A stretch of 64,000 nt of DNA from Paraspadella gotoi (taxonomy: Eukaryota > Animalia > Chaetognatha), in contig CM119265.1 in the NCBI GenBank assembly GCA_051294375.1, positions 11,031,918 through 11,095,917 of the forward strand. The letters run 5' to 3'. Position numbers and translations under genes: made by a program. Numbering within the stretch: the first letter of the stretch is position 1; the number at the start of each line of letters is the position of its first letter. The notes under the pieces are model-generated. The model saw only the letters and a program-made list of their open reading frames with translations, had not been told where the DNA came from and did not search any database. Positions 8,213 to 64,000 of the stretch are shown here, one piece after another.

Positions 8213-9538
8213 TAGAGCGTTCAAATATAACAAAATATAAGATATTAAATTCTATTCATAATTATTTTACTTTCATCTAAGAATCATAGTAACATTTTTT
8301 TGTTAATTCAGTTTTTTCTAAAATTTTTGTGTAATTGTAATTATGATATCTGTGTTCTTTTTTTTTCTCTTTTTTCCAATTTAAAATTTGTTCTCTTTTA
8401 TTTATGTTAATTGCACTATCTTTAATTTTTTGGAAATTTTTTTTTTTCTCTCCTTTCAAATAGATTAAAAAATTTTTTATTAATTCATTTGCTATAAACT
8501 GTAATAAAAACAAACATGTACATTAAAAATAAAAAAGTATACAGAATTTTTGTTTCATCTCTAAATATTTTAAATAGAAAAAATCAAAATATAAATTCTA
8601 TTCATAATTATTTTACTGTAATAAGGTCTGAAGAATTCGATGGTGATACCATTTTTTTGTATAATTTCATCTTCTTGTCGGAAATGAATTTTTAATGTAT
8701 ATAAAATGTTAATAAAATATGGCAAATATTATAAGTTATGATAAATCAAATTATTAATTTTTTTTAAATTTACATGAGCTTTTAAAATATAAAAATAAAG
8801 ACCTATAAAAATATTTTGATAAATTAATTTCTCAATTTTATGTTTTATTAAAAGTAAGTTAGCTATATTTATTAATAATTATAAATAAAAAATTAGGCCA
8901 AAGTTAAAAAATAATAATTTAAAATTTTTTATCCCAGAATCGCATTCCTTCAAAAAGTTGATATAAGAAAATATAATTTTTATTAAAAAATTATGCAATT
9001 AAGTAGTCAAAATTTTAAAAAAATATAATTTTAAACCAAAAATGTTTAAATTAAACAAAAATCATAGTTTTTAACATTTTTAACCAAATTAATGAAAGAA
9101 TTTGTTAAAATAGATTTTACTTTCTTATATCAACTTTTTGCAAGGAATTCAAATCTGGTTTTAAAATTTCAAAATATTTATTTTTTCACTTTAGCCTATT
9201 TTTAACTACTAATTATTAATAAATATAGCTAACAAGCTGTAAATAAAATATAAAATTTATAAATAAGCTTACTGAAATATTTTCATGGGTCTTTATTTTG
9301 ATATTTATAAGCTAAATATGAATTTTATAAAATTTTAATAATTTTAGTTTTTCATACTTTACAATGGTTGCGCCATTTTAATAGCACCTTATATGCTTCA
9401 AAAATCGCCATTGGCGACAAGGAAGATGAAACTATACCAAAAAATGGTTATCATCATCAAATTCTTCAGACCTTATTACATTAAAACAATAATGAATGAA
9501 ATTAAATATCTTATATTTTGTTATCTTTGAACGCTCTA
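8213..9538. mobile_element. hAT-like non-autonomous element with long imperfect TIRs
   Basis: Ends are TAGAGCGTTCAAATATAACAAAATATAAGATAT and its inverse, with 8-bp TSD GTGAATAT/GTGGATAT. A left-end copy at 2918 runs into a gap. Confidence 0.85.
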
Positions 9539-15064: not shown

Positions 15065-17626
15065 CTAAGTTGTAGTTCATTCGAGAATAGCGATGTGTCG
15101 CCGGCGTATTCAACGCACGAGTCTGCAGCATGTCGGTCTCTTAGATTGGTTGGCGAGTTCGCCCATGCGATGTCGCCAGGGCTTTGGCGCATGTCGCCAG
15201 TCCCCTCCACTGGCGACTCGCCTAGAGTGATAAAAAGTACGCAAATTAATGAGAAACGCAGCGAACTCGAGGGTATATGAGCATCACCTTCAGGCTCCTT
15301 TTCCCAACCCTAACCCTAAACAAACCTCCCGTTCAACTCTGTGCCTTCTCCCTAACCCCACCGCTGCCTGGGCTCGCTCTCGTAGCTATCTCTGCATGCT
15401 CTCAACCCTTAACCCTAACCGCCTTTGATGCTCAACCACGGGCCCCTCCCCCAACTGTAACCCCTAAACCAATGTCGTTCCCATTCAACTCTGTCTGCTC
15501 TCTCCCCATAAACCTAAACCCAGGCTCAGCCTCCCCGTAGACATCTCCGTGCCTCAACCTCTAGACCCTTAACTCGCCTTTCGATGCATCTAACACGGGC
15601 CCCTCCCGCCAACCCTAACCCTAAAGCTATAGCCTTCCCGTTTCAACCTTCATGCTTCTTCCTAACTAACTCAGGCCCAGCTCCCGTACATTCTCCGTGG
15701 CCTCAACCCTAACCCTAACCGCCTTGATGCATCAACCATGGTCCCTCGCGGCAACCATAACCTAAACAAGCTCCCGTTCTCAAGATCATGCCTCTTCCCA
15801 TAACCCTTAACAGGCCCGGACTCCTCTTACATCTTCCGTACCTCAACCCTAACTCTAATGCCTCTCGATATATAACCCACGGCATCTCTCCCAAACCCTT
15901 AACCCCTAATACGGGCCAGCCTCCGTACATCTCCGCTACCTCACACCCTAACCCTAATTGCCCTCACTTCTCGACATATAACCCAGGGCCTCGTCTCCGC
16001 AACCCCATAACCTAGACCGGGCCCAGCCCCTCCTCGTACATCTCTGTCCTCAAACCCTAACCCTCAACCGGGCCCTCTGGTCATCAGACAGACACCCTCC
16101 CTACCCCTATCCCTAAAGATTGACATTAATAATAAGCCTTAAAATAAACATTAATTAACTCAACCCTTAACCCTAAATATCTCAACCCTTAACCCTAAAC
16201 TACTCAACCCTAACCTAAAACTACTCAACCCTACCCTAACTCTACCTAGCTCAACGCTAACCCTAAACTCAACTCACCCTAAGCCCTGAAATTGAGTTTA
16301 TTTGAGGCGAAATCCGCGATAACTAGAACGTAGATGTATCAGTTCAGCAAGTAGCGAAATCGCTCAAATCGGACTTAGCCATTGAACGCCCTCCCATTTG
16401 GCGTTTAGCTGTGAATTACATCATAGCGCGTGTTCATCCGGCGATGTTCGCCTAAATATAAGACTCAATATAGGGTTAGAGTTGTGAGCTGGTTTAGGGT
16501 TAGGGTTGGAGTTAAAGTTAGTAGTATTCAGGGTTAATGTGAGTTGAGTGAGTTTAGTTAGGCGTTGAGTTAGTTGGGTAGGGTTAAGGGTTAGGGTTGA
16601 GTTAAGTAAGTTATTTTCTTAGGCTTAATTATATTATGTCAATTTTAGGGATAAGGGGTAGGGAGGTGTTGGTTATGACCAAGAGGCCCGCGGTTAGGGT
16701 TAAGGGTTGAGGCCACGGAGATTACGGGAGGCTGGGCGCCGCGGTTTAGGGGTTAGTTGGGGAGAGAGGCCCGTGTGTGTTACTATATCGAAGGCAATTA
16801 GGGTTAGGGTCTGAGGTACGAAGATTGTACGGGAGGCGCCTGGGCACCAGTTTAGGGATTGGGTTGAGAAGAGGCCCGTGGGTTTATATATCGAAGGCAG
16901 ATGTAGGGTTAGGGTTTGAGGTACGGGAGATGTACTGGGACGGCCGGGCCTGGTTTTAGGGTAGGGGGAGAGGCATGGAGTTGAACGGTGAGGCTTGGTT
17001 TAGGGGTTAGGAGTTGCGCGAGGAGACCATGGTTGATGCATCAAAGGCGGTTAGGGTTACGGGTTGAGGCACGAGATGGTACGGGAGGCTGGCTCTGATG
17101 TTAGTGAGTTGGGGAGAGGCATGGAGTTGAAACGGGAGGCTTAGTTAGGGTTAGGGTTGGGGGAGTGGGCCCGTGGTTGATGCAATCGACAGGCTGGTCT
17201 AGGGTTAGGTGAGAGCAACCGGAGATGTATATGGGAGGCTGAGCCTGGGTTAGGGTTAGGGGAGAGGCACCGAGTTTGAATGAAGGCTTAGGTTTAGGTT
17301 AGGTTTGGAGGGCAGGGGCCCGTGGTTGATGCATCAGAAGACAGTTAGGGTTAGGGTTGAGGCATGGAAGTGTACCGGAGAGGCCAGGCGCGGGTTAAGG
17401 GTTAGGAGAGGCACGAGGTTGCAACGGCGAGGTTTGGTTTAGGTTAGGGTTGGAAAGGAGCCTGTAGGTGATGCTCATCCCCGTGTTAGCTGCGCTTTTC
17501 ATGTCATATTTCGCATTATCTCTGATTTTATTCATGCGTTAGTGTCGCCGGAAGTGGGGGAGCTGCGGACATTCGCCAAGGATGGCGACATGCGCCAATG
17601 GAAGGTCGCCAACCAACTAGAACTAG
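15065..17626. mobile_element. Foldback-type element: ~1.2-kb inverted arms built of ~120-bp units rich in CCCTAA (left) / TTAGGG (right)
   Basis: The arms are reverse complements (e.g. 15280-15304 vs 17452-17477). Termini are CTAAGTTGTAGTT / AACTAGAACTAG. The flanks rejoin into a repeat seen uninterrupted at ~56660-56710. Confidence 0.7.
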
Positions 17627-21321: not shown

Positions 21322-22777
21322 TCACGCGTTGGTGGGTGATTTTTCCCTGACTCTCGAACCGGCGGCGCCGGCGGAGGCGGCGCGTGATTCCGCGGCGTCA
21401 AGGAACATCGAAGGGATCTTCTCTCCGAAGAAGATCTTATTGTTGGAGGCGATGGCCTCGAGGCGTTTGAGTTCGAGATACTCTGCCGTCAGCAGGAGTT
21501 TGTTCGACTCCGCCTGCTTCTCGATGGCGTAGAAGTCGGCATCGGCGCGCGCGCGCATGCGTGCTGAAAGGATAAGAGAGATGAAAAGTGAAGACAAGAT
21601 TTGAAAAAATTATTTAATTAAAAAAAATAGACTGCCTCAAGAATATAAAAAAAATGTACACTGCTTCGAACTTGTTTCCGACTTGATTGAGTTAGAATTT
21701 TAACATAGCAGTCTTTTTTTCTTCCCACCTTCACCAAACACGTCCATCACGAAAAGACTTACCCAAGTGAGTCTCGTCCTCGATGAGCGACATCTTCTGC
21801 ATAGATTCTTTTTCGACGATCTTTGCGTCGTATTGAATTCGATTCACTTGCGCCGCCTTCTCCGCCTCGATCACCGCCTTCTTCCGCTCCGTCTCCGCCT
21901 CCTTCTCCACCACCTTGTCAAGTTAAGATTCAAGGGCGTTTGTCAACCGATTGTTTAAAATACAAACAACCCCCTCCGTCTCACTTTCTGCTTTTGTTGT
22001 GCGATCAAAAGCTTCGACTTCTCCGCCTCCATAAGTTCGAAGTTTTTCCTAATGGACTCGGGGATTTTTGGTTTGGTGACGCGAACCGCTTGCACTTGGA
22101 GACCCGGCGCCATTTTCGTCAGGTCTTCTTGCAGAGCCTGCTTCAAATTTTCGTCGATTTTGTCGAATAAATCGATGTAGACTTCTTGCAAACTATCGAG
22201 GAAAAGGGAGAAAAATAATGTTCCTTTTATTAGAAATCTACTATGTAATTAAATTCAATAGGGGCGGGGGTTCAATTAATGCTTTTATTTTTGCATTCAA
22301 AATTACATTATTACTATATATTATGAAATTGGTACAACCAATATAAAAATTATCCATTCATTTAATAAATAAGCTATTTGCCCCTTACTTTGGACAGGCT
22401 TTGGTGGTTTAAGGCCTCCATCACTCTTACAAGATAATGACATAGCAGGTCCCTGCAAGCTTTCAATCAGACTCTCTCACAGTCTCGTTTATTCACTCCC
22501 AGAGTACCAGGCATAATATTTCAAAGAATGTTTTAATAGTTGATGATATAATGATAAAAAAAAATTTTTAATCAATCTTAACTTTTTTTGATGGATTCTG
22601 ATAGAGCACAAAAAGTTAAATGAACAAGTTTGAGCAAACAATGTCGATCTGCCCACGATAATTAAGCGGTAATCAGCTCAATAAATAAAAAATAAATAAA
22701 TAAATACTGTCGTAGAAATAATTACAAATAAAATAAAAATAATTTTCTTCAACTATTATTATTATTATTTTTTCAAC

Positions 22778-25800: not shown

Positions 25801-28800
25801 CTTGGTGATGCACTTTCCACCAACAACAACAATACACTGAAGAGACGCAACAGACTTCTCCCTACGGGAGGGGGGGATGTATGGTGGACTAAAATCCACC
25901 AACCGTTCATCAGCGGCCATTGGTGCCGGAGGCAAGTCATTCGCCTCCCAACCCAAAGGTCCGGGTTCTAGCCCGGTGGTCGTCTGGCAGTTAAGAGGGA
26001 CGGGGCGCTTAAACCCGCCTGTAACATGGTGTTACAGCCTGATCCGAAGCTCAGGGACTGCTTACATTGAACGGTTCTGTCATTAACACTTATCAATAAT
26101 TACTGTCTCTTCACTTTCTTTCCACACACAAAATTTCATCCCATTCTATCCTTCCAATTATGAATAAAATCGATTAATGATGGATTAAATTAATAAATAG
26201 ATTCAAATAAAGTGACTTATGTTTTTTCCATTTCAACTCATTTCCACTTGTACGATTCCATCTAAATTTTATATCCAGCTTTATCACACACTTTCCTACT
26301 CCGACACAAAATTTAATCTCAATCTATCTATCCAATTATGAGTAATATGAGTTAAGATTAGTAAAAAGATTTAAGCTATTGTGACTTATGTTTTTTCCAT
26401 ATAAACTTATTTCCACTCGCACGATTCCATTGAAACTTTATATCCAGCTCAATCACACACTTTCCTACCCACACACAAAATTTTATAACAATCCAACCAT
26501 CCAATCACGAGTAATTGGAGTTTTTTTTGCTAAGGGGGGACGGATGGACGGACTTTTTTTGGCTTAATTTATGATAATATGATGTTCTGATGTGATAAAA
26601 TGATTTACCGACAAGATTTAGGGTGAATTATAGACTCGGAATCTGCTGATAAGCAGATCCGACTAAAAATATAACTAAAACTTTCAAAAAAGTATCAGGA
26701 TCTCGCCAGACGTTACTATCAAAAATCGAAAAAAAAGAATGATTGATGCGATAACAAATTATTGATTTAATAAAAATTGATTGATGAAATAGTAATTAAT
26801 TGATTGATTGATGTAATAGTAATTGATTGATAGATATAATAGTAATTGATTGATAGATGTAATAGTAATTGATTAATTAAACATAATTGTAATTGATTAA
26901 TATAATTAATAATGATTGATGATGTAATAGTAATTGTTTGATATAATAGTAATTGATTGATTGATATAATAGTAATTGATTGATTGATGCGATGATAACC
27001 AAAGGATTGATGCGATTATAACCAAATGATTGATGTATGGTGGACTAAAATCCACCAACCGTTCATCAGCGGCCATTGGTGCCGGAGGCAAGTCATTCGC
27101 CTCCCAACCAAAGGTCCGGGGTTCTAGCCCGGTGGTCGTCTGGCAGTTAAGAGGGACGGGGCGCTTAAACCCGCCTGTAACATGGTGTTACAGCCTGATC
27201 CGAAGCTCAGGGACTGCTTATGTTGAGCGGTTCTGTCACTAACTCATAACAATAATTACTGTCTCTTCATTGTGAGCCCGACTTCCGAACACAACAGCAA
27301 CAACAACACTTTCAGGCGACATGCCTCAACCTGGCGATGCACTTTCCGCCACAACACATCAGGCGACATGCCTCAACTTGGTGACGCACTTTCCACCAAC
27401 AACAACAATACACTGAAGAGACGCAACAGACTTCTCCCTACGGGAGGGGGATGTATGGTGGACTAAATCCACCAACCGTTCATCAGCGGCCATTGGTGCG
27501 GAGGCAAGTCATTCGCCTCCCAACCCAAAGGTCCGGGGTTCTAGCCCGGTGGTCGTCTGGCAGTTAAGAGGACGGGGCGCTAACCCGCCTGTAACATGGT
27601 GTTACAGCCTGATCCGAAGCTCAGGGACTGCTTATGTTGAGCGGTTCTGTCACTAACTCATAACAATAATTACTGTCTCTTCAGATGCAATGATAACCAA
27701 AGGATTGATGCAATGATAACCAAATGATGGATGCGATGATAACCAAATGATGGATGCGATGATAACCAAATGATGGATGCGATGATAACCAAATGATGGA
27801 TATGATAATTGGGACCAACTCTGAGATAATTAAAATTTCGACTATTAGCAAAGTATCTTTAGTTGTCTTAACTAAATATTTAAGCAATCATTTTCAAAAA
27901 AATTTACATTATACGTCTTGATTAATACATTAAAAATTACATGTCTTTCTAAATTATAAAATTTTTTTTTGAAATCTTCAAAATTTTTTTATGGATTCTG
28001 ATAGAGCATAAAAAGTTTAACAAGAAATATAATTACAGCTTTTTAAAAATTCTTACATTTTCTATGTGAAAATATAAAAAAACTGATAAATCATTGAAAG
28101 AGATGATGATTTTTTACGGTTTTTCTTATTTTTGACTTGCTTATCATAAAAATATTTAAAACAAGTTTGAGCAAACAATGTCGGATCTGCCTACGATAAT
28201 TAATTAATTAATCGATTAATTAATTAATTAATAAATTTTAATATGTAATAATTAATTTTAAATTTATATTCAACTATCATCATCGATGTCCATAAAAATT
28301 GGGTTAGGACAGTTATTAAATATGTTTTTGTTTACATTTTATCCTCTATTTTATTTTATGTCTCCTTCTCTCTCTCTCTCTCACTCTCTCTCTTTTTATG
28401 CAATTGCGACGATTTTTAAATTTTTTAACTTGCATCATTTTTCACATTAATTAATTAATTAATTAAACATTTATTAGTAATCATTAATATTAAAGATTCA
28501 AGTAAAATGTGACATATGTTTTTCCATCTAAACTCATTTCCACTGGCACAATTCCCTCAAAACTTTGAAACTTTTGAAATTATGCGAGTTGATTTAATTA
28601 TGCAAATTGATTAAATTATGAAAGTTTACCAAATATGAAAGTTTACCAAATTATGAAAGTTTACCAAATTATTAAAGTTTACCAAATTATAAAAGTTTAG
28701 CCAATTATGAAGGTTAACCAAATTAAGCAAGTTAACTAAATTATAAAAAATTACCAAATTATGAAAGTTTACCAAATTATAAAGTTTACCAAATTTAAAA

Positions 28801-30351
28801 GTTGATTAAATTATATCAGTTGACCAATTTATGTCAGTTGACCAAATTATGTCAATTGACTAAATTATGCAAGGTGACCAATTATGCAAGTTGGTATTGG
28901 TGCAGCTATTGGTTCATTGATTGATTAATTGAAGTGAAAAATATTATTTTTTATTTTTATATTTTATTGTAATGAAAGATGAAAATAGAAAATAGATAGA
29001 GAAAGACGAGAGAGAGAGAGAGGGAGAGAGAAAGAGAGAGTAGAGGGAGAGAGAGATAGGAGGGAGAGAGAGCCGTTCCAAGGGGCAGGAAAATCCATCC
29101 CCCTGGGGGTAGCCCCAGGGGCAAGGTTTTTCTAGCCCCTGGGAGATTCCCCCTGGAGTGGCCCCTTGGGGCTCCAAAAAAGAGGCTACAGGGGGGCCGC
29201 CCCTAGGCGGTAAGGATTGCCTGCCCTCGGGGCCGCCCCAGCACCGCCCCCGGGGAAGCGATTCTGAAGGATGACATACTTGTGTTTATGCCGACACCAT
29301 CACACTCTAACCAGCGTGACCGTGAGGGAAACCCGGAACTCACGGTTGGTGAACAAGTACTTAACTGAGTTTCACCAGCTATATGGGAAGCGAATTTAGG
29401 ATTAGCCACAGTACATCATTTTATAATATGAAGCCTTCTGTATAAAAATGTATAAAACAAACGAGTGAGTGTAGGAATATGAAACATACAATTTAAAAGA
29501 CCTCAATGATGAGAAGCCATATCTAAATTTTCAGCTTTCTGTGGTTACACACAGAGTTTCGTTAACCGTTAATTTTTCAGAAAATTTGCTTAACCGTTAA
29601 ATCTAACATTTTTAACGGTTAACCGTTAAAATTTTCTATTTAAGCTTCTCGTTCTCTCTTTCTCTTTCTCTCTTTTGCTTTCTTTTTTCTTTCTCTATTT
29701 CTCTTCCTCATTATTTTTCTAGTTGTAAGTCTTTCATAAACCATGACCATAATTATAAATATAAAATATTAGTTTATTAGTTTAGTTATTAGTTTATTAG
29801 TTAGTTTAGTTATTAGTTTATTGATTGAGCTATGATCAAAGATTTATTGATTAATAAATTTTTTTTCCATTTTATTAAAATGTATATCATCATTGAGGAT
29901 ATTTTAGTTAGCCTTAATGTCTTTTTTAAAGATTTCTTCCTTCTATTATTAATTCTTTTTTATAATAATTTTTATTAATTTTTTTCATTCATTCGGAAGA
30001 AAAAGAGAAAAAAAAAGAATTATTCATTTTTTTAATAACAAAATAGAATAATAAGTTTTTCATGTAAGAATTAAATTTGTAAGAAAATGTATGCATTTGC
30101 ATAAATATTATATTTCAAAATATTCTTTGATGTAAATGAATTGTGTTATGTAATCCTTTCTTTCGTTGTGATTAGAGATTAAAGACAGTTTGAAAATAAT
30201 TGGCAACAACAATTTATTTTCAAGATGAAAACGTACATGTTTCGGCTTTTTTACAAGCCTTCTTCAGCGTCAATTTAGTTTGCGAAATTATTAAACAGAT
30301 TTTGTGTAAAAGATGGTGAGAGAGAGAGAGAAAAGGGAAACTTTGCCCTCC

Positions 30352-31355: not shown

Positions 31356-34300
31356 ATTTCAATTTCTTTTCACAAACTATCTCTGTCCTCACTTTCACCT
31401 GTCCCTAATATAAAACTGAACACTATCCTTTCTCTCAAACTCTGTGTTGGAAACTTTGCTCTCTCTCTCTCTTGCTCTCTTCTTTATGCACAAAATTCTC
31501 TTCAAATTCACAAATTGAATTGGCGCTGAAGAAGACTCGTATGTGAGTCGAAACATGTCGTTCACTATGAAATAAAAATCGTTGTTAAATCTCTCTTCAA
31601 AACTTTGTTCTAAATCAAATCACAACGAAACAGAAAGGAAAAAACACAATGTTTNNNNNNNNNNNNNNNNNNNNNNNNNTCATTCTTTCAACTTGCATCA
31701 TTCTTTCAACTTGCAACAAGCTTTAACTTGCATTATTTTTTCAATATGCATAATTTTTTTATCTTACTTATTAATTAATTAAAACATTCATGAGTAGGCA
31801 TAAATAATTAAAATTTAAGTCAACTTAACTTTGGTTTTTTCCATGCAAACTCATCACGATTCCGACGAAACTTTATATCCTGCTCAATCATACTTTCTTT
31901 CCCACACACAAAATTTCATCCCATTCTATCCTTCCAATTATGAATAAATCGATTAATTATGGATTAAAATTAATAAATAGATTCAAATAAAAGTGACTTA
32001 TGTTTTTTCCATTTCAACTCACTTCCACTTGTACGATTCCATCTAAATTTTATATCCAGCTTTATCACACACTTTCCTACTCCGACACAAAATTTAATCT
32101 CAATCTATCTATCCAATTATGAGTAATTATGAGTTAAGATTAGTAAAAAGATTTAAGCTATTGTGACTTATGTTTTTTCCATATAAACTTATTTCCACTC
32201 GCACGATTCCATTGAAACTTTATATCCAGCTCAATCACACACTTTCCTACCCACACACAAAATTTTATAACAATCCAACCATCCAATCACGAGTAATTGG
32301 AGTTTTTTTTGCTAAGGGGGGACGGATGGACGGACTTTTTTTTTGGCTTAATTTATGATAATATGATGTTCTGATGTGATAAAAATGATTTACCGACAAG
32401 ATTTAGGGGTGAATTATAGACTCGGAATCTGCTGATAAGCAGATCCGACTAAAAATATAACTAAAACTTTCAAAAAAGTATAAGGATCTCGCCAGACGTT
32501 ACTATCAAAAATCCGAAAAAAAAAGAATGATTGATGCGATAACAAATTATTGATGTAATAAAAATTGATTGATGAAATAGTAATTGATTGATTGATGTAA
32601 TAGTAATTGATTGATAGATATAATAGTAATTGATTGATAGATGTAATAGTAATTGATTAATTAACATAATTGTAATTGATTAATATAATAATAATTGATT
32701 GATTGATGTAATAGTAATTGTTTGATGTAATAGTAATTGATTGATTGATATAATAGTAATTGATTGATTGATGCGATGATAACCAAAGGATTGATGCGAT
32801 GATAACCAAATGATTGATGCAATGATAACCAAAGGATTGATGCAATGATAACCAAATGACGGATGCGATGATAACCAAATGACGGATGCGATGATAACCA
32901 AATGATGGATGTGATGATAACCAAATGATGGATATGATAATTGGGACCAACTCCTGAGATAATATAAAATTTCGACTATTAGCAAAGTATCTTTAGTTGT
33001 CTTAACTAAATATTTAAGCAATCATTTTCAAAAAATTAATACATTAAAAATTACTTGTCTTTTTTAAATTATAAAATTTTATTTTTGAAATCTCAAAATT
33101 TTTTTATGGATTCTGATAGAGCATAAAAAGTTTAACAAGAAATATAATTACAGCTTTTAAAAATTCTTACATTTTCTATGTGAAAATATAAAAAAACTGA
33201 TAAAATCATTGAAAGATGATGATGATTTTTTACGGTTTTTCTTATTTTTGACTTGCTTATCATAAAAATATTTAAACAAGTTTGAGCAAACGATAATTAA
33301 TTAATTAATCGATTAATTAATTAATTAAGAATTAAGTCGATTGAATTAATGTATGTGAAGTAGAATTTTAAGTATGTAATAGTTAATTTTAAATGTTTAA
33401 TATTAGCTATTCGATCATCGATGTCCATAAAATTGGTTAAGGACAGTTTATTAAATATGTTTTGTTTACATTTTAATCCTCTATTTTATTTTATGTCTCC
33501 TTCTCTCTCTCTCTCTCACTCTCTCTCTTTTTATGAAATTGGCGACGATTTTTAAATTTTTAACTTTGCATCATTTTTTCAACATTAATTAATTAATTAA
33601 AAAACATTTATTAGTAATCATTAATATTAAAGATTCAGAGTAAATGTGACTATTTTTTTTCCATCTAAACTCATTTCCACTGCGCACAGGATGTCGCGTT
33701 CAAAGAACTTTAATATAGATTTTATATATTATGAAATATTTAGAAAGCTTGTAAGTGAACAACCCAATGACTAATACCAAAAAGTTACATTGAATAGTCG
33801 ATTTGGTAGTAAAGGGAAAAAAAGAAATTATTTAAGAGAGACTAGAAGTTGTTAAAAACGTGTTCAAGTTTTGGCCCGGCCTTACTAGATAATCTAGCGG
33901 ACCGGACAGGTTGAAAACTAGAAAGTTCGTCGCTCAATAAATGAATGGGTGGAAGTAGCGAGGCTATAAATATATAAAATGAAAACAATTTAAGTAGCTA
34001 TTGAGATATGTGCTTAAATTTCTTACATTTTTTTCATAAGATTCTAGATTAGAGGCTTTAAAAGGTTAGATAAAGGTTATTATATAATATAATATATATT
34101 ATATAACTTTTTAAAATTTTGTAGGTTTTATTAAATGAAAAATTTTAAAAAAAATAGAAATTCAGGACCAATAATGATGGATGATGTATTTTAGAGGAGT
34201 TTTTTCTATATTTTTAAGCGCAATTTATTGTCAAAATTTGAAACTTTTTTAAGCTCTACAAGAACCCGTTCTTAAAAAAAAACAATTTTTTCAAATTTTT

Positions 34301-37300: not shown

Positions 37301-39386
37301 NNNNNNNNNNNNNNNNNNNNNNNNNNNNNNNNNNNNNNNNNNNNNNNNNNNNNNNNNNNNNNNNNNNNNNNNNNNNNNNNNNNNNNGGTAGCCCCAGGGG
37401 GCAAGGTTTTTCTAGCCCCTGGGGGACACCCCCTGGAGTGGCCCCTTGGGGCTCCAAAAAAGAGGCTACAGGGGGCCGCCCCTAGGCGGTAAGGATTTGC
37501 CTGCCCCTCGGGGCCGCCCTCAGCACCGCCCCCGGGGGAAGCGATTCTGAAGGATGACATACTTGTGTTTATGCCGACACCATCACACTCTAACCAGCGT
37601 GACCGTGAGGGAAACCCGGAACTCACGGTTGGTGAACAAGTACTTAACTGAGTTTCACCAAGCTATATGGGAAGCGAATTTAGGATTAGCCACAGTACAT
37701 CATTTTATAATATGAAGCCTTCTGTATAAAAATTGTATAAAACAAACGAGTGAGTGTAGGAATATGAAACATACAATTTAAAAGACCTCAATGATGAGAA
37801 GCCATATCTAAATTTTCAGCTTTCTGTGGTTACACACAGAGTTTCGTTAACCGTTAATTTTTCAGAAAATTTGCTTAACCGTTAAATCTAACATTTTTAA
37901 CGGTTAACCGTTAAAATTTTCTATTAAGCTTTCTCGTTCTCTCTTTCTCTTTCTCTCTTTTGCTTTCTTTTTTTCTTTCTCTATTTCTCTTCCTCATTAT
38001 TTTTCTAGTTGTAAGTCTTTCATAAACCATGACCATAATTATAAATATAAAATATTAGTTTATTAGTTTAGTTATTAGTTTATTAGTTAGTTTAGTTATT
38101 AGTTTAATGATTGAGCTATTGATCAAAAGATTTATTGATTAATAAATTTTTTTTCCGTTTTATTAAAATGTATATCATCATTGGAGGATATTTTTAGTTA
38201 GCCTTAATTAGGAAGTCTACGTCGTCTTTAGAGATCGAGGAAAGACTTTTCCAATTGGAATTTTCCAGTTCAAATCTGACTACCAAACAATATAAACGCT
38301 CCTGGTAAAAATTCTGGTAAACTATCGATGTAAAAAAACACTTGATTCCGATCCTGTTGCATGCTGAAGGGCTCGCATTTTTTTTTTCTCTTGTCAAATC
38401 ATCATCATCTTGATATCAAACAAGCCAGAAACAAATAGACTGCTTCTCGATGGAAAAATTTTCCATCTCTGATTATAATTAAGAATGAAGGGATTTTTTC
38501 CTTGAAAACGATATAAACGTGACTGAGGTATTTTCCTGTTTAACAAAATGAGGTCTAATTTTGGAATCCTTTGGCAAGTGTCTGAAGGGCCTCTCAAAAT
38601 TTTTCTTTTACATTTTATTTGGTTATTTTATATGATAACGATCATGGTAAAGTGGATTAGTCCATTTTGGTGAAATTTTTATTTAAAGTAAAAGTAAAAG
38701 AGGAGCTAACGATCGGAAATTTCTAGAGAGTTTTCAACCGGGAGTCAGATTCGGGAAAAATCTTCTATGGCGAAAATCTTCCAAAGAAGGGGTGGATTTT
38801 CCAAAGATTTTTGGTTAATATTTTCTATATCTTGTGGTTGGATTTTTTTGAATACTTAATATTAACAATATTGCCATCATCTCTACCTTGGCTGGTATAA
38901 GAATATATAAAAAACTCTCGGGCTTTGTTCGTCAGAGCTTAGTCCCTACGCCTTAATGTCTTTTTAAAGATTTCTTCCTTCTATATTAATTCTTTTTTAA
39001 TAATAATTTTTTTATTAATTTTTTTTCATTCATCTCGAAGAAAAAGAGAGAAAAAAAAGAATTATTCATTTTTTTATAACAAAATAGAATAATAAGTTTT
39101 TCATGTAAGAATTAAATTTGTAAGAAAATGTATGTATTTGCATAAATATTATATTTCAAAATATTCTTTGATGTAAATGAATTGTGTTATGTAATCCTTT
39201 CTTTCGTTGTGATTAGAGATTAAAGACAGTTTGAAATAATTGGCAACAACAATTTATTTTCAAGATGAAAACGTACATGTTTCGGCTTTTTTACAAGCCT
39301 TCTTCAGCGTCAATTTAATTTGCGAAATTATTAAACAGATTTTGTGTAAAAGATGGTGAGAGAGAGAGAGAAACGGGGAAACTTTG

Positions 39387-42400: not shown

Positions 42401-43158
42401 GATGAGGGATAGATAAGTTAAAGATAAGTGAAATAGTAAGGTAAGAAAAGAGAAAAAGAAAGTAAGAAAAAATGTCTAAATTTTCGTTTGAGCAGGTGTT
42501 AATTCAAATTTCTTAACCACCTTACTGAGTTAGATAACCCCTACTTTTATCATTATATTAAAATCTCATGAAAATAAATTTCACCAACTCATACTCAACC
42601 TGTTAAACTGTTGATGAGATAGAGAAACTCCACCTAATTTTAAAAGAACCAAAAGTTACTCTGCGACACCTGTGCTGGGAGCAGAACTGATTGAGTTCGT
42701 GATGAATCTTGTTGAAGATGAGGACTTTATCGTAGTCAGGGCTGTAGCTCTTGACGATCTCATGGACGACGTCCATTCGGAGGATGTTGACGACCTCGAC
42801 GCGATCGAAGAAGATCATGACGCCGCCGGAGGTGCCGCACGGAACGTTCTTCACCTCGTCCGTCTGCAGCGTCGTCTGCATCGATCGGTAGGTAGTGATG
42901 AAGGGGATCATGAGGTGGTAGCCTGGGGGGTTGGTATGGGAGGGGGGGCGAAGAAGAAAGGGAGGAGTCGACTCTCGATTTGTATTTCGAATAATTAAAA
43001 ATATTTTTCTCTTCACCAGGAGATGTGATGGAACTGAGAAGGGCGCCGCCGCGAAAGTAGACGCCCACATGACCCTCTTCGATCTTGTGGATGGAAAAGT
43101 TAAAGAGGATGGCGACCGCAGCGACGGCGACAATGATGACTGAGGCCGGGGCCGCCAT
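21322..43158 (-). CDS. ERLIN: Erlin (ER lipid raft-associated, SPFH/band-7 family), 5 exons: 43158-43017, 42922-42670, 22192-21985, 21913-21763, 21563-21322; 996 nt, 331 aa
   Basis: The spliced translation [41 protein letters not shown]...[12 protein letters not shown]...[23 protein letters not shown]...[33 protein letters not shown]...[23 protein letters not shown]...[25 protein letters not shown] matches the erlin-1/2 family as I recall it. All four introns are GT-AG with compatible phases, and the exon lengths sum to 996. Confidence 0.96.
23001..23730. repeat. 18-bp minisatellite (TCAACTTGCATCATTCTT)n, ~40 copies, preceded by (TAT)n at ~22752-22990
   Basis: Read directly from the sequence. 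It explains the periodic ORFs at 23006-23797. Confidence 0.95.
23911..26113 (+). mobile_element. Second copy of the same miniature LTR element; 5' LTR (23911-24104 plus 25655-25696) interrupted by a 1.5-kb insertion; 3' LTR 25880-26113
   Basis: TSD CTTT (23907-10 and 26114-17), PBS TGGTGAGCCCGAC at 25698, PPT at ~25866-25876. The empty site atcataCTTTctttccc is at ~31888-31903. Confidence 0.9.
24105..25650. mobile_element. Non-autonomous DNA element nested in the 5' LTR; diverged relative in opposite orientation at ~3150-4760
   Basis: TGAA is duplicated on both sides. It has imperfect ~16-bp TIRs (ggctccacgtacgatc / gatcgtaagcagaggc), an internal palindrome at 24921-24963 and a CT-rich core; similar features occur at ~3860-3910 and 4020-4380. 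Confidence 0.65.
27070..27138 (+). promoter_or_regulatory. tRNA-Gly-derived head with Pol III A/B boxes inside the LTR (in every LTR copy; 5'-truncated in the solo copies)
   Basis: Acceptor-like stem CGGCCAT/GTGGTCG, A-box-like TGGTGCCGGAGG, anticodon-loop-like TCGCCTCCCA (TCGCCTGCCA in the 1-kb copy; Gly CCC/GCC), and T-arm CCGGG-GTTCTAG-CCCGG (B box). Confidence 0.7.
27142..27218 (+). ncRNA. Predicted twister ribozyme, circularly permuted type P5 (5' LTR); equivalents at 27559-27632, 25986-26062, 24018-24095 and, on the minus strand, ~1025-1098 and ~5747-5822
   Basis: Element order: P5 GGCAGUU, AA, P2' GAGG, GA, T1' CGGG, GCGC, U^AA, P2 CCC, GC, P3 CUGUAAC/GUUACAG, P4 CCUGA/UCAGG with loop UCCGAAGC, P5' GACUGCU. 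The loop matches the twister L4 pattern (4-nt T1, AA, GC for T2). The CGGA variant in the 1-kb copy keeps T1 pairing. Confidence 0.75.
30230..30271 (-). ncRNA. Minimal type I hammerhead ribozyme motif (duplicate 39270-39311; degenerate inverted partner 30454-30495 on +)
   Basis: GACG-CUGAAGA-AGGCUU.GUAAA.AAGCC-GAAAC-AU-GUA-CGUU, with palindromic ACAUGU as stem III. Confidence 0.75.
30863..30904 (-). ncRNA. Minimal type I hammerhead ribozyme motif (duplicate 40870-40911)
   Basis: GGCG-CUGAAGA-AGACUC.GUAUGU.GAGUC-GAAAC-AU-GUC-CGUU. Confidence 0.78.
31522..31562 (+). ncRNA. Minimal type I hammerhead motif, inverted partner of 30863-30904 (duplicate 41335-41376)
   Basis: GGCG-CUGAAGA-AGACUC..GAGUC-GAAAC-AU-GUC-GUU, followed by AATAAA. 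Confidence 0.72.
37837..41622. mobile_element. Relative of the AACCGTT hAT-like MITE, with nested Penelope-like and hAT insertions (left-end duplicate at 29552)
   Basis: CAGAG...CTCTA ends, 8-bp TSD GTTACACA, and AACCGTT subterminal repeats at both ends. Confidence 0.75.
38209..38949. mobile_element. hAT-like non-autonomous insertion (related end at ~11737)
   Basis: TAGG...CCTA(C) ends with 8-bp TSD GCCTTAAT. The empty site is at ~29911 in the duplicate. Confidence 0.8.
42022..42068 (-). ncRNA. Minimal type I hammerhead motif in a ~490-bp Penelope-like insertion (~41981-42470)
   Basis: UUUG-CUGAUGA-AGACU..AGUC-GAAAAC-AU-GUA-CAAA. The insertion interrupts sequence that is contiguous at ~6410-6430. 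Confidence 0.7.
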
Positions 43159-53051: not shown

Positions 53052-53961
53052 CAGAAGGCTTCATATTATAAAATGAGGTACCCCTTTTTTGTGACCAGAA
53101 CTCGTTCCGAGAAAACTACTGAACCAAATTTATTGAAATTTGGAATGAACGATCTCTATGTGAATTCTAATAAAACTATCAAGGCGAATTTCAATATTTG
53201 ACCGCTGAGCCGAGATATGGGCCCCCGGGGGGTCACCCATGGGGGCAAAAAATGGTCAAATTTTTCTATTATTTTTGCTTTGAACAGTTTCACAAACGTT
53301 TACTCTTCCACAAAAACTTATTTATTACCTCAAAAATATTCATTTACCATAATTTTTAGCTTCATGAACATCATCAGATTTGGAATAATTTGGGAAAATT
53401 GGAAGTAAAACGATGAACCATGCATCTTCAACCATGCTTAATTATTGCAAATTTATCAATATTAGTTCTAAAATGTTTTTTTTTTATGTTTAAAACGTCA
53501 ATGCACCTGATGCTACTAAAGAATTTTGGCCCCCCAGGGGTCCACCCCAAGGGCCCTGTATCTCTTGTCAGGGGTTGAATATCAAAATTCGCCTCGATAG
53601 TTCCATTTATATAGTCATTAGCACTCTAAATGTAAAATTTCATTAAATTTGATCGGGTAGTTTGGTGGGAACATATTCTGGTCACAAAAAAGGGGTACTG
53701 TGGCGGTATATTCACACCGCCTCATGTCCACCATCCTTCAGCCAAATCCATTGGGTCAGAGGGTGAACACACCATCCCAGGCGTAGTGTTCCCTCTGTGT
53801 TGGCAAAGCGAGACCGTCCTATGGTAACCGCGCCAGTGACTGGATGCGTCACTGAGGGTCGGAAACCCCCAAAGCTAACAGTGAGATGCCCCATCCCAAT
53901 GGGCATCACAGGCAACCCGGCTATTGCCATAGTACCTCATTTTATAATATGAAGCCTTCTG
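53052..53961. mobile_element. TA-flanked CAG...CTG non-autonomous DNA element (Tc1/mariner-like ends); further TIR copies at 29405-29440, ~37690-37724 and 60323
   Basis: TIR CAGAAGGCTTCATATTATAAAATGAGGTACTRTGGC at both ends, with TA on each side. Confidence 0.8.
53081..53695. mobile_element. MITE with TIR CCCCTTTTTTGTGACCAGAA inserted in the TIR of the preceding element; second copy starts at 60352
   Basis: 20-bp TIRs with a TA duplication. Removing it restores the outer TIR. Confidence 0.85.
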
Positions 53962-58012: not shown

Positions 58013-59360
58013 CTGGCGACTAAAAACAAGATCGAGCTTCGACACTTTCTTTCTCTCTTTCTCTCCCTCCTTGGAGACTGAAAATGGCGAAAGTTGAGAT
58101 TAGACCTCTTAAAAAGAAAAAGAAAACATTAGCCCCCTTGGAAGAAAAAAAAAAAAAATAAATAAAATAACTGCCGCGATAAACCTTAAAGATCAAACCA
58201 ATTCGGACAACCTCAAAGGAGAATATATTGGCATCTTGGAAAACCTGATGAATTTTTCTAAAAGATTGCATCCTAATAATGCAAACCCACAAATTCTGGA
58301 TAAGAATATAATGGATCTACTTGCTTTGGTGCAGAATACACACGTCCCCTCTGCCTTTAAAAACCCAAACTGTCTCCACCTCAACTCAAACCTATTTCAC
58401 CCAAGCCAATGCTTCAACCCAGACCACAAAAACCAAGGCCAGTTGCAATCAATCTTCTCAGACAAAATTTTCTCACTCAACCTCCTCTTCCCAAACTACC
58501 CAAACCGCCATCATTTCTGATTCAGTTTCAACTCAAACCAATGTTGCCAAGACTGATTCTCAAGAGCAGACCAACTTACCAACTGTCAAAGACAAAGCTA
58601 AAGATGTAAAAACTCAAGCAGGAGATACTTCAGCTGGAAAAATCCAAGGAGAAACTTCATTTGCAAGAATCAACTTAAACAAGAATCAACACAAAAATCA
58701 AGCCTGCTCTTATCAGTCTCCGGTCAATAAATGGGAAACAAAATCAAGAAATGAAAGAACTGGAACCTGGAAAGAATACATGATCCCTCAAACCTGCGCT
58801 GAAAAAATCTATATCCCCCCTCATCGACATGTTCCTCAAGACCAAAGAAGGCAACCAGCGTTTGAAAAACCCAAAAATACTTACCCTAAACTGATTGAAA
58901 TAGACTTACAACCATGGTTGCGCCAGAAGTTTGCTGCATTTTTAGCTCAGACTTTGATGAGACTGTGACATAAATTAAAAATAAACTTTTAATCATTTAA
59001 AAAGCTTTTGATAGAAATCCAACAGTTTTAGTTTGTGACTTCTCTCACTTTTTTAGTTCTCTGTCTTTGTTTTTTTAGTCAAGAGGGAAGCATGACGATG
59101 TAATGTCACGCCATTGGGGGCCTAGACATGACATTTTGGTCAAGAAGGGGGACGCAGAGGAGGATTTAGCCTGCCGTCCAATTCTCCTCCTCTTCCTTCC
59201 TCCTCCTCCTGCCCCTCAGTATATTTTGTCTAGCGATACATTCTCTCGTTTCTACTCTTCTCGAAATATACAATTATTTTCCCCTCTATTTCTTGACGCC
59301 TTCAATACCACTCAAGTTTACATATTAATAAAAACTTATTTTTTTTGTGATTACTGATCA
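58013..59360 (+). mobile_element. Possible decayed LTR-retrotransposon fragment with S/T/Q-rich ORF 58321-58968
   Basis: TGGCGAC (PBS-like) at 58014, an A/C-rich ORF region, a purine tract AAGAGGGAAG at 59081, then an LTR-like stretch with AATAAA. No matching 5' LTR was found. Confidence 0.35.
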
Positions 59361-60488
59361 CTATAATGTATTTCTCGATGTATTAGCTCTAATACATCAA
59401 TGATTATGCATTGTTATGGTGAATGACCTTTCCTCTTAAGAGATTTGGCATTAATTTTTATACATAACATTCACGGATGAGAAACAATAAAAAATGAAAA
59501 AATCAATGATTTTTTTTTAAAACTGCATATTCTACGAGACTGTACATTAGGGTGGAGTGATAAAAAGATTGAGGGATGGAACAATGTTTTTTTGCTGCCT
59601 TTGTATATGTAATAAAAAATAATTAAGCCCTTTTTCAAAAAAAATTTGAATAACAGTATCATTAATTATAGTAATATCCTTATAAAATCATAAAATTTCA
59701 AAATCATATTTTTTTAATTCTAAGAACAATTTCGGATTCGCCGGAAAAAACTGAAAAACTTTTGTAAAATATGTTATATATTTTTAGGTTAAAGCTTCGA
59801 AAAATGACCAAAACGTCTCATCATATAATGGTTTCTACTACAAATCGTAAAAAAGTGGAGAATTTAAATTTTTTTTCCATTTTTGACGCTGAAGACATTG
59901 AAATTTTTAATAACATATTTAATATTTTTGATCTAACTTTTTATGAAGAATAAGAATCTTTAATAAAAATTTAAAAAAAAATATTTTAAAAATTTTTGAT
60001 TTTATAAGGATATTACTATAAATATATTGTAATTAATGATACTGTTCCCCAAACAATATAAGCAAAATATTTTTTGTACTCCTTAATCATACTATCTCAC
60101 ATCTAAATATCCTTGTTTGTTCACTCAAATAAAATTCATGTTGCCCAGTGCTCCACTCTACTGTACATCGCAAGTAAAAGATAAATATAGCCAACCGTTT
60201 TTATAACTGAAGAATATCCTATATTTATCAGCGAGATGAAAATAAATGACAATTATTCCACTTTCAAAATCATTGTCTAAAATATCCGAAGCGGGAGTAG
60301 AGCCTTGAGAAAAAAATGATTACAGAAAGCTTCATATTATAAAATGAGGTACCCCTTTTTTGTGACCAGAATCTGTTCCCACCAAACTACCGTATCAAAT
60401 TTTATGAAATTTTACACAGAAAGTCCTAATGATAATATAAATGGAATTTTTAATTCCTTTATGGAATATTAATTCTATATCGGTTGTT

Positions 60489-62110
60489 GTGTACTCGGTA
60501 GGAGGGTAACGGAAGTGGTAGGATTTTTCCGTGGTCGGATGTGAAACTGATGGTCTGTGTACTCGGTAGGAAGGGTAACTGAGATGGTAGAATTTTTCCG
60601 TGGTCGGATGTGAAACTGATGGTCTGTGTACTCGGTAGGAAGGGTAACGGAGATGGTAGGAATTTTCCGTGTCGGATGTGAAACTGATGGTCTGTTGTAC
60701 TCGGTAGGGAAGGGTAAGGGAGATGGTAGGGAATTTTTCCGTGGTCGGATGTGAAACTGATGGTCTGTGTACTCGGTAGGAAGGTAACGGAGATGGTAGG
60801 AATTTCCGTGGTCGGATGTGAAACTGATGGTCTGTGTCTCGGTAGGAAGGGTAACGGAGATGGTAGGAATTTTTCCCGTGGTCGATTGAAACTGATGGTC
60901 GTTGTACTCGGTAGGAGGGTACGGAGATGGTAGGATTTTTCGTGTCGGATTGTGAAACTGATGGTCTGTGTACTCGGTAGGAGGGTAACGGAGTGTAGGA
61001 ATTTTTCCGTGGTCGGATGTGAAATGATGGTCCTGTGACTCGGTAGGCAGGGTAACGGAGGATGGTAGGAATTTTCCGTGGTCGGATGTGAAACTGATGG
61101 TCTGTGTACTCGTAGGAAGGGTAACGGAGATGGTTGGAATTTTTCCGTGGTCGGATGTGAAACTGATGGCTGTGTACTCGGTAGGAAGGGTAACGGAGAT
61201 GGTAGGAATTTTTCCGTGGTCGGATGTGAAACTGATGGTCTGTGTACTCTGGTAGGAAGGGTAACGAGATGTAGGAATTTTTCCGTGGTCGGATGTGAAA
61301 CTGATTGGTCTGTGTACTCGGTAGGAAGGTAACGGAGATGTAGGAATTTTTCCGTGGTCCGGATGTGAAACTGATGGTCTGTGTACTCGGTAGGAAGGGT
61401 AACGAGATGGTAGGAATTTTTTTCCGTGGTCGGGATGTTGAAACTGATGGTCTGTGTTACTCGGTAGGAAGGGTAACGGAGATGGTAGGAATTTTCCGTG
61501 TTCGATGTGAAACTGATGTCTGTGTACTCCGGTAGGAAGGGTAACGGAGATGGTAGGAATTTTCCGTGGTCGGATGTGAAACTGATGGTCTGTGTACTCG
61601 GTAGGAAGGGTAACGGAGATGGTAGGAATTTTTCCGTGGTCGATGTGAACTGATGTCTGTGTACTCGGTAGGAAGGGTAACGGAGATGGTAGGAATTTTT
61701 CCGTGGTCGGATGTGAAACTGATGGTCTGTGTACTCGGTAGGAAGGGTAACTGGAGATGGTAGGAATTTTTCCGTGGTCGGATGTGAAACTGATGGTCTG
61801 TGTACTCGGTAGGAAGGGTAACGGAGATGGTAGGAATTTTTCCGTGTCGGATGTGAAACTGATGGTCTGTGTACTCGGTAGGAAGGGTAACGGAGATGGT
61901 AGGAATTTTTCCGTGGTCGGATGTGAAACTGATGGTCTGTGTACTCGGTAGCGAGGGTAACGGAGATGGTAGGAATTTTTCCGTGGGTCGGATGTGAAAC
62001 TGATGGTCTGTGTACTGCGTAGGAAGGGTAACGGAGATGGTAGGGAATTTTTCCGTGGTCGGATGTGAAACTGATGGTCTGTGTACTCGGTAGGAAGGGT
62101 AACGGAGATG
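60489..62110. repeat. 70-bp tandem repeat, ~23 copies
   Basis: Unit GGTCGGATGTGAAACTGATGGTCTGTGTACTCGGTAGGAAGGGTAACGGAGATGGTAGGAATTTTTCCGT, with no spacers. Confidence 0.95.
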
Positions 62111-63556
62111 TGGATCCGATGGTCGGATCGTGCCAAACGATGGCGGCGGCGTGAGCGGTCGCGCCGAAATCCTGCATCGAGCGCGAATTAGAACGAAGAG
62201 AAGCCGCGTTCGTTCCCTTGGAAAACGCTGCCTCAAACTGAGCGGAAAGGCACGAATCCGGCGTCGGAGCGAAGAACTCGGGCGGAGACGCCGCGTCGAC
62301 CCAGTGGCGGCTCTGCTGGCCGCCTGACGAGTTAACGAAGACCAGTTGGCCGTGAGAGCGTCGTCGTTTCCAACGCAGCGGAGGACCGCCACATGTTGCG
62401 GACCCATTGAGACGGGGCCGGCGCCGAACGGGCGGCCGGTAAGAAGTCGTCTAAGCCGCCGGCGTCCTCGTCCGAAGATGAAACTTCTCCGTCTTCCGCC
62501 GAATTGGAGGAATACTGGGCATCCGGGTCCGGCACTGTGTGGGACCGATGACGCTTGGGTGGAGGCGAGACCGTACGACGGTCCGAGGCAGACGCCCGAT
62601 CTGAGAGGGGCCGCCCACTGGAGTCAGAACAGCATGGAAGGAATTCGAAACGAGTCAAAGCGGTGAAGCGTAGTGGAGAGAAACCGGACCGACATGGAAT
62701 CGTCACATGTAAAAAAACGTAAGCGGTAAACAAAAATTAGCGCGAGAGAAGAAACGAAAAACTCCCGAACCCCCCCCCTCCCTCTCTTCCCCTTCCCGAC
62801 GCCCGCTACGCCACGTAAAAAACGGTAGGTGACAAAAATGGGGAGGACGGTGGGATCGTGGCGAGGCGGACCGATATAGAATTAATATTCCAAGGAATTA
62901 AAAATTCTGATATCGGTCCGCCTCGCCACGAAAAAGCCCCCTGCCAAGAGGCGGAGGGAAAAGCTATTTCTAAAAAAACGAAAATTCACAAAAAAATTTT
63001 CAATTAAAACGAAAATTAGAAAGAAAGAAATAAAAGGAGAAACAAAAAGAGGGAGGCGAGGCGTTATAAAAACGAGCTAAAAACCACTACGCCCCCTAGC
63101 GGGAAAAGAACTCACCGCTCCAAGGCGTCCAAACGCTGCCGAGACTCGCGTCGAAGGTCGTCGAAATCCTTCCGGAAGCTGTTCAAGGACGACACCATCG
63201 TCGTGAGGACAGACTCCAGTCCTCGGGCCTCGTCGCCCGGCCTTGGGGGGCGAAAAGACCGGCCGCCACCTTGCCCGACAGCGGTGTGAGCAGCTGATGC
63301 GGGAGAAGCCCCACCGCCCGGCCCGACAGTGGTGGGTCGACTGAGGCGGACCGAGCCCCCAAAACCGATGGAATCGGGCTGCCGAAAACCGCGGTAGAGG
63401 GGGAGAAGGCGGCGGTGGTGGGGAGGTGGCGGCGGGGGCGAGACCGCTCGATCTCTTTTGGATCTCTCGAGCCCCCGAGGGGTCTCCAAACCCTCTCTAC
63501 GATTCTGAGACTTGTCCGAAGTTGAGACTTCTTGTCTCGTCTCTGACTGAAGACAT
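62110..63556 (-). pseudogene. Gag-like ORF1 remnant of the DIRS-like element, with predicted intron 63115-62618
   Basis: Low-complexity R/S/P-rich ORFs with a coiled-coil-like stretch (LNSFRKDFDDLRRESRQRLDALER) and an acidic patch (SAEDGEVSSSDED). Donor CG|GTGAGT and acceptor CTCCAG|T join the two ORFs in frame. Several frameshifts are present. Confidence 0.5.
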
Positions 63557-64000
63557 CGTACGAGCGGATTTCGATCGTAGAAATACGAGAAAATCGTGAA
63601 AAAGGTAAGAAAAACGCGAAATCTAAAGTGAGATAACCGAACTAGATGAGCGCGAAAAAAGAATTGAGGATCTCAGTCACCCGGATGAGGGAGGAAGCCG
63701 GCTTCGGTGGATGCCGGCTCCCATTGGTCGGGGCCGGTCACGTGACGGCTTCCCTCTGGATTTTCTTTTTTTCATTTTTCGATGTTATTTTGTTCGTTTT
63801 TCTGACTCTGATAAACGCGCGATCTATCGACTAGCGCGAACAAAAGGGCTTTTCGTGCGAGGCGGACCGATATCAGAACTATTGATATTCAACTCATGAC
63901 AAGAGATACAGGTTCCTGGGGCTGAACCCCGGCCCTGGGGGGCCAAAAAAGGCTAAAAATATTTTTTTCATATTTTAATATTTTTAGTAGTATCAGGTGC

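Follow-up and report, generated by a model that had tools for sequence, protein, structure and literature searches.

The 64,000-nt stretch of Paraspadella gotoi DNA analysed here (contig CM119265.1 of assembly GCA_051294375.1; hereafter the window) carries at 60444-63878 an element that is very likely a DIRS-type retroelement, judged by its sequence anatomy. It has non-identical termini and an inverted internal copy of both, the internal complementary region (ICR), and this ICR lies within a predicted GT-AG intron close to the inferred 5′ end. The stretch was present in nine of the 11 sequencing runs listed (three studies, one organism), none of them recorded as RNA; the best-matching DNA run may be the source of the assembly itself. 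Four of these (X1, X2, X5 and X9) were aligned, as contigs only. The features of the element, with its open reading frames (ORFs) and its inverted terminal repeats (ITRs), are as follows.

60444-63878, minus strand: whole element, read as a copy, broken internally, from a DIRS1-like family (empty paralogue with one GAA; ICR complementary to both ends)
63846-63878, minus strand: left (5′) terminus, which aligns in inverted form with the ICR's left half; starts TTC (GTT in an alternative register)
63686-63878, minus strand: probable left ITR and promoter region, inner boundary not fixed (summed contig depth is maximal here in X1 and X2)
63116-63556, minus strand: predicted coding exon 1, Pro/Ser/Gly-rich, then a helical, coiled-coil-like end; start codon not fixed (GC content 0.64, synonymous variants)
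62618-63115, minus strand: predicted GT-AG intron of 498 nt (top donor, low GC, stops in all three frames, frame-keeping acceptor)
62856-62939, minus strand: ICR, left half 62905-62939 (35 nt) and right half 62856-62907 (52 nt), from alignment, shuffles and folding
62620-62761, minus strand: AG-free pyrimidine-rich zone of 142 nt (shuffle), with branch-point-like TTGAC at 62658 and CTGAC at 62627
62147-62617, minus strand: predicted coding exon 2, rich in Ser/Asp/Glu and followed by a helical-looking part; relatives extend past 62147
62111-62146, no strand: join of 36 nt resembling a degenerate array unit, to which it aligns; no cover in the four runs
60488-62110, no strand: 69-bp tandem array of 23.4 copies, in place of the rest of ORF1, reverse transcriptase (RT)/RNase H, recombinase and most of the right ITR
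60444-60484, minus strand: right (3′) terminus, ending TTC (ATT in an alternative register), made up of a 12-nt ITR remnant (60473-60484) and a 29-nt right extension (60444-60472)
53524-53698, minus strand: uninterrupted host-repeat paralogue, the empty target site (GAA at 53601-53603)

GC content goes up across 60444-63878, and both ends of this segment have the trinucleotide GAA in common. The segment is one insertion inside a host repeat, whose flanks are colinear with the uninterrupted paralogue. A single GAA stands at the insertion point in the paralogue, and a separate 12-nt gap lies 4 nt off. The circle-junction trinucleotide was present once in the ICR and once in the empty site, as recombination predicts, and there was no true target-site duplication. 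A first-pass annotation of the same DNA had proposed ends joined over the common GAA with no such duplication, and the empty paralogue bears this out. Contigs running from the left junction into the flank (63857-63985) had no other letters in X1 and X2. Within the probable left ITR, a GTCACGTGAC palindrome (63737-63746) is what we take to be an E-box and CCAAT on the minus strand (63723-63727) is presumably a CCAAT box; the region 63686-63878 probably serves as the promoter. At the other end, the 29-nt extension was complementary to the ICR only. Just 12 nt of the right inverted repeat are left, whereas the right half of the ICR reaches 14 nt further, and the right ITR was therefore cut. Short joints in X1, X2 and X5, with left-ITR-like letters ahead of the right-terminus sequence, suggest that other copies have longer right ITRs. 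Copies of the host repeat in the window, with a common 23-nt stretch, were found at 60330-60443, 63879-64000, 53059-53300, 53524-53698, 53932-53954, 29411-29433 and 37695-37717. We assume that this repeat may be a non-autonomous Helitron/Helentron-type element.

When 63840-63878 was joined to 60447-60484 over the common GAA, the product aligned with the reverse complement of the internal stretch, with a 3-nt gap (TAT) in the ICR. The local alignment scored 119, whereas none of 300 Markov shuffles scored above 30 and the best score elsewhere in the window was 31. The right part of the ICR (62870-62907) pairs with the right terminus at 38 of 41 nt and its left half with the left terminus (the outermost 33 nt, ending at 63878) in 33 of 35 columns, the halves sharing the 3-nt circle junction at 62905-62907 (TTC). 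A perfect 22-nt inverted pair (62856-62877 and 62910-62931) carries the ICR out to 62856, and the whole forms a long single hairpin (fold z = -10). The first-pass annotation had placed this inverted copy at 62857-62930, about 1 kb off the 5′ end; its presence was confirmed with an exact extent of 62856-62939, and the measured distances are 939 nt to the inferred 5′ end and 2412 nt to the 3′ end. Read on the minus strand, the ends are GTT and ATT around a junction AAT, the extension is 3′-terminal, and this strand also carries the coding signal. A head-to-tail dimer junction was ruled out as the source of the ICR, as the match ends at 62856 and 62939 with no ITR beyond. The split direct repeats (A1..B1-A2-B2) of Ngaro, PAT and VIPER elements were absent, the internal copy of the ends being inverted, and the element contained no long direct repeat other than the 69-bp array. 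At joints in X1 and X2 within 62855-62934 the left-terminus half directly adjoined the right-terminus half, separated by 13-35 letters, which suggests very short hairpin-shaped remnants of the two ends only.

The ICR is enclosed by a GT..AG interval running from 63115 to 62618 on the minus strand. Its removal fuses the ORF at 63112-63672 with the ORF at 62332-62736 in frame, and this fusion, first proposed in the earlier annotation, was reproduced. The donor (CG/GTGAGT) ranked first among 92 GTs when scored with a matrix of approximate frequencies, and it is the sole GTRAG on the minus strand of 62111-63878. The TGA inside GTGAGT is the stop of the upstream frame if the RNA is unspliced. Base composition differs sharply between the interval (GC 0.46, T 0.39) and the two exons (both GC 0.64). 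The 142 nt ahead of the acceptor are the longest run without an AG on either strand, with P between 0.005 and 0.046 by shuffling, varying with the stretch shuffled, and none of the 11 listed variants in this zone gained an AG. Among 12 acceptors tested (the interval contains 17 AGs), only that at 62618 left the frame open to 62383. The complete variant table had no variant at 62617-62625, while 62616, 62626, 62644, 62649, 62659 and 62664 do vary. The sequence features of a U2-type intron were thus all found, namely a consensus GT donor, an AG acceptor with a pyrimidine tract and AG-free zone, and a restored frame. On these features the 498-nt interval is likely to be a spliced intron. Run X9, putatively RNA, contained no splice joint; its contigs extend over the intron, the array and the flanking host repeat just as those of the DNA runs do, and it is no evidence either way. 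A second, weaker GT..AG occurs in the T-rich 5′ region (63547-63680, minus strand), with a donor at 63680 and acceptors at 63642, 63623 or 63547. In the window, 63556 has an ATG that is out of frame, and the GT at 63680 might mark another intron, which might supply the missing start codon.

Variation among the relatives pointed to coding in both flanking ORFs. In the proposed frames 9 of 16 exon variants were synonymous and none created a stop (null mean 5.0, P 0.03); the other minus-strand frames gave 5 and 3 synonymous changes out of 16, and the plus-strand frames 2, 8 and 4. These 16 were among the variants listed, leaving out five at 63397-63414, where the frame is uncertain, and three fixed against the window. 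In exon 1, five of the six variants at 63424-63490 were synonymous in the ORF frame. The downstream frame has its first in-frame ATG at 62394, yet synonymous variation was found upstream of that position. A diverged subfamily, which departs from the window in a loose end at 62510, goes on in the same acidic frame when followed by eye.

The arrangement was not confined to the copy in the window. Contigs of X1 covered 62147-62721 (depth 1228, over the acceptor), 62911-63062 (depth 1132, from the ICR half into the intron) and 63036-63332 (depth 1007, over the donor), and those of X2 covered 62147-62529 (depth 597), 62910-63065 (depth 598) and 63036-63395 (depth 713). The flank junction of this insertion itself had a depth of 186 in X1 and 122 in X2, so that the first two contigs of each run stood at approximately 5-7 times the depth of that junction. 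The links from exon 2 to the intron, from the ICR to the intron and from the intron to exon 1 were each bridged, in several runs, by contigs that differed little or not at all from the window. In X5 and X9, contigs of approximately 980 nt passed over the acceptor and then ran some 400 nt past 62147 into sequence absent from the window; the 30 visible letters of this sequence keep the frame open, as judged by eye. Far deeper and more diverged contigs were found on both sides of the ICR. Several copies, and hence a subfamily, therefore have the order exon, ICR-bearing intron, exon. Taken jointly, the minus-strand orientation and the standing of the arrangement as a family trait appear highly probable. 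Compared with all four runs the window has one-base gaps at 62308 and 62382, and a further gap, at 63419, was seen in contigs of all four; these look as long-read errors would.

About half of the element is the 69-bp array, which runs up to its last 41 nt. The unit was abundant in all four runs, with head-to-tail joints, which rules out an invention of the assembly. X9 gave a depth ratio of unit to exon-2 contig of 23.7, close to the 23.4 copies present here. In the runs the unit also borders on several other sequences, and none of the contigs ties it to the element. The array may be part of the element family or an independent minisatellite. At the join, depth was zero at 62122-62144 in all four runs. 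Because this stretch is uncovered in every run and resembles a degenerate unit, the loss of the element's 3′ two-thirds reflects either a deletion private to this copy or a mis-join in the assembly. The minus strand of the 69-bp unit is free of stops over long stretches in all three frames.

The first-pass annotation had described the two ORFs as gag-like, and this label was not supported, as neither had a Pfam, profile or atlas match; for ORF1 a coding signal was present and a homologue was not found. Other parts of that interpretation (DIRS-type termini, a 5′-proximal ICR and an intron-like interval of 498 nt) were upheld by the sequence tests and the multi-copy relatives. Its account of the element had left unmentioned the array and the lack of RT, RNase H and recombinase coding. 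These domains are missing from the copy because the array replaces its 3′ two-thirds. The sole profile hit, P0001, was discarded, being a six-fold tandem-repeat protein that inflates a 26-residue match. Rfam gave six weak matches, all under the gathering score. An 18-nt terminal motif was found at 28 loci in metagenome contigs, none alike past 27 nt, and was set aside as chance.

The element resembles DIRS1-like elements (DIRS-1 of Dictyostelium and the 28 elements surveyed in PMC3266345) in its non-identical inverted termini, 29-nt right extension, NTT ends and a trinucleotide shared with the target. It also resembles them in a two-part ICR with halves of 35 and 52 nt that overlap on the 3-nt circle junction. 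Of the 28 published elements surveyed by Piednoel et al. 2011 (PMC3266345), 23 had NTT ends, ATT being the commonest, and the animal elements had a right extension only; published right extensions measure 9-75 nt. TnDIRS1a exemplifies this right-extension type, with halves of 36-57, a typical size, and a right extension of 27 (Table 3 in PMC3266345). Inverted terminal repeats of DIRS1-like elements measure 66-316 bp. Unlike these elements, the one described here has its ICR 0.94 kb from the 5′ end, inside ORF1 and surrounded by a predicted intron. In all 28 DIRS1-like elements of that survey the ICR follows the listed tyrosine recombinase (YR) motif and stops 141-616 nt (median about 250) short of the 3′ end (PMC3266345). 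The copy here also differs in lacking RT, RNase H, methyltransferase, YR and most of the right ITR, and in having the 69-bp array. As the ICR is not at the 3′ position and RT and YR were not seen, the element appears DIRS1-like by anatomy rather than a proven member of that group.

In Dictyostelium, DIRS-1 without an ICR still gives complementary DNA (cDNA) and does not complete retrotransposition; its RT acts in trans, and a marker intron placed outside the ICR is lost from new copies (PMC7192593). By analogy with DIRS-1, transcription would start from the left ITR along the minus strand. Unspliced RNA, in which ORF1 ends at the donor, would serve as the genome and would be the sole template for ICR-bearing cDNA made by RT. 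The ICR in this cDNA would pair with both cDNA ends, which would be rebuilt and joined, and a tyrosine recombinase would put the circle into a matching trinucleotide, leaving GAA on each side. RT/RNase H and the recombinase may have been encoded in the part replaced by the array, or may be supplied in trans. Spliced RNA would encode the full ORF1, probably Gag, and would be dead for replication; its cDNA would lack the ICR and could not be completed, and intron-less copies would never integrate. The intron would be kept automatically, because the essential ICR is absent from cDNA of the spliced RNA. The essential role of the ICR (PMC7192593) would imply such a separation of mRNA from replicating RNA on two conditions only, a genuine intron and replication in the minus-strand sense. 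That the copy is an internally broken, DIRS1-like variant in which an essential ICR in the intron keeps the intron and leaves spliced mRNA replication-dead is, on the sequence, evenly balanced in our estimation. More tentatively, and with somewhat less than even confidence, we propose that a DIRS lineage moved its essential end-joining signal into a gag intron, giving a splicing switch and an intron immune to retro-deletion.

Several observations weigh against this proposal. RT, RNase H, methyltransferase and recombinase had no match in the frames of the element, nor in 124 of the 150 other listed frames of the window; the contigs of relatives, at under 1 kb, are too short to reveal these domains. 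No homologue of either exon was found by Pfam, word-index search, viral contigs or atlas. The synonymous excess is modest, and the plus-strand frame with 8 of 16 had one stop gain. Exon 2 has a one-base insertion at 62606 in approximately 27-30% of the X5 and X9 depth, and the subfamily concerned would thereby lose the spliced frame. The branch-like CTGAC at 62627 is variable in most of the depth. Other good acceptors at 62970 and 62941 lie upstream of the ICR and would keep it in the RNA. No single molecule in the runs spans the whole arrangement. An intron-less copy was found at none of the seven joints listed, which fits an intron that cannot be lost and is equally expected without any splicing.

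Some of these points favour a DIRS1-like element with a 5′-proximal ICR in which the 498 nt separate two ORFs as a spacer that is never spliced, or represent a relic intron, and no switch exists. No spliced reads were seen in the runs, the variant at 62606 shifts the frame in one subfamily, the ORFs of DIRS elements are described as separate or as overlapping, and 'intron' is a word absent from the available parts of PMC3266345, PMC9210276, PMC3783388, PMC6681497 and PMC2685390. We nevertheless consider a spacer unlikely, since the top donor falls exactly on the stop of ORF1, the 142-nt AG-free zone precedes the acceptor and the in-frame fusion is possible solely at 62618; the downstream frame, moreover, has no ATG until 62394 despite the synonymous variation upstream of it. 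The replicated sense could also be the plus strand, which would put the ICR on its usual 3′ side, make the 29 nt a left extension, and leave the spliced ORF as an antisense product of the right ITR whose intron is never removed from the replicated RNA. The right long terminal repeat of DIRS-1 does promote antisense RNAs, one of 900 nt (PMC3950715), left extensions exist, and PAT-type elements can have inverted coding regions (both PMC3266345). Read in this way, however, the ends would be GAA and not NTT, the ICR at 939 nt from the end would exceed the published 141-616 nt, and left extensions are known, in PMC3266345, only from fungi and amoebozoa, whereas the host is an animal. A plus-strand element is accordingly improbable in our view.

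We consider it similarly improbable that the element is a DNA-only, Crypton-like tyrosine-recombinase element, or another non-retro element moving via folded or circular DNA, with an ordinary and unprotected intron. RT was not found in the element, and Cryptons leave short microhomology direct repeats and often have introns (PMC13465315). Yet they have no terminal inverted repeats (PMC13465315), whereas the ITR remnant, the extension and the two-part ICR of DIRS1-like size are present here and the joints suggest longer right ITRs elsewhere; the ORF, in addition, has no recombinase match. The odd place of the ICR might, lastly, reflect a rearranged non-autonomous subfamily or an assembly product, the autonomous partner having a normal 3′ ICR. 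The window is error-prone here, no run backs the join at 62111-62146, only some 5-7 copies are tied to the exact arrangement, and the autonomous partner was not seen. Against this, all three links between exons, intron and ICR are bridged in several runs, the intron is covered by more diverged copies to either side of the ICR and the exons show signs of coding constraint, and an origin of this kind seems quite improbable. The ICR-bearing intron of a DIRS1-like element remains the reading that we prefer, at the strengths given above.

Precedents exist for parts of this proposal. The BARE1 LTR retrotransposon also makes distinct RNAs for translation and replication, of which one is spliced; unlike the element here, it is an LTR element with an integrase, and its splicing gives a Gag-only RNA and removes no end-joining signal (PMC3735527). 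Cryptons share tyrosine-recombinase logic, microhomology repeats at the ends and introns, and differ in having no terminal inverted repeats, no RNA step and an encoded recombinase, which was not seen here (PMC13465315). No 5′ or intronic ICR is described in the available parts of the DIRS literature, including PMC9210276, PMC3783388, PMC6681497, PMC2685390, PMC5718144 and PMC9004415; a prior description elsewhere, for instance in Repbase, is possible.

The comparison extends beyond these elements. In retroviruses the packaging signal lies downstream of the major splice donor, an essential cis element in an intron, and spliced RNAs are barred from replication. That signal gates packaging, whereas the ICR here would gate cDNA end repair and circularisation. 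Introns are found in some fungal YR retrotransposons, and the intron alone may not be new.

Elsewhere, the window consists of repeat-rich eukaryotic DNA with TTAGGG-like repeats. An Erlin-like (SPFH/Band 7) gene on the minus strand (approximately 42645-43157 and 21958-22248) has a short first intron and then an exon about 20 kb on, and gave a strong match to Erlin-2/1 chains in PDB. This gene and the TTAGGG-like repeats suggest an animal host, in agreement with the source of the DNA. Two large imperfect palindromes, at 15249-17502 and 8589-9507, are 74% and 77% self-complementary, respectively; the former is composed of TTAGGG-like units and 146/293-bp repeats and resembles a fold-back element with telomere-like repeats. 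Near-identical local duplications (96-98%) lie beside N gaps (44-2976 versus 4764-8271, and 26113-27035 versus 31892-32819) and possibly represent haplotype duplication or assembly redundancy. On the plus strand at 58113-58968, an open frame of 135 codons overlaps one of 218; neither had a credible Pfam match, and the pair may be a decayed mobile-element ORF.

Retrotransposons usually lose introns on copying, and tagged DIRS-1 loses its marker intron (PMC7192593). If the proposed arrangement is true, it would provide a simple rule for the persistence of an intron and for splitting one DIRS transcript between translation and replication. It would also mean that an ICR can function far from the right ITR, which would bear on whether the role of the ICR is in end-joining only or in the start of reverse transcription.

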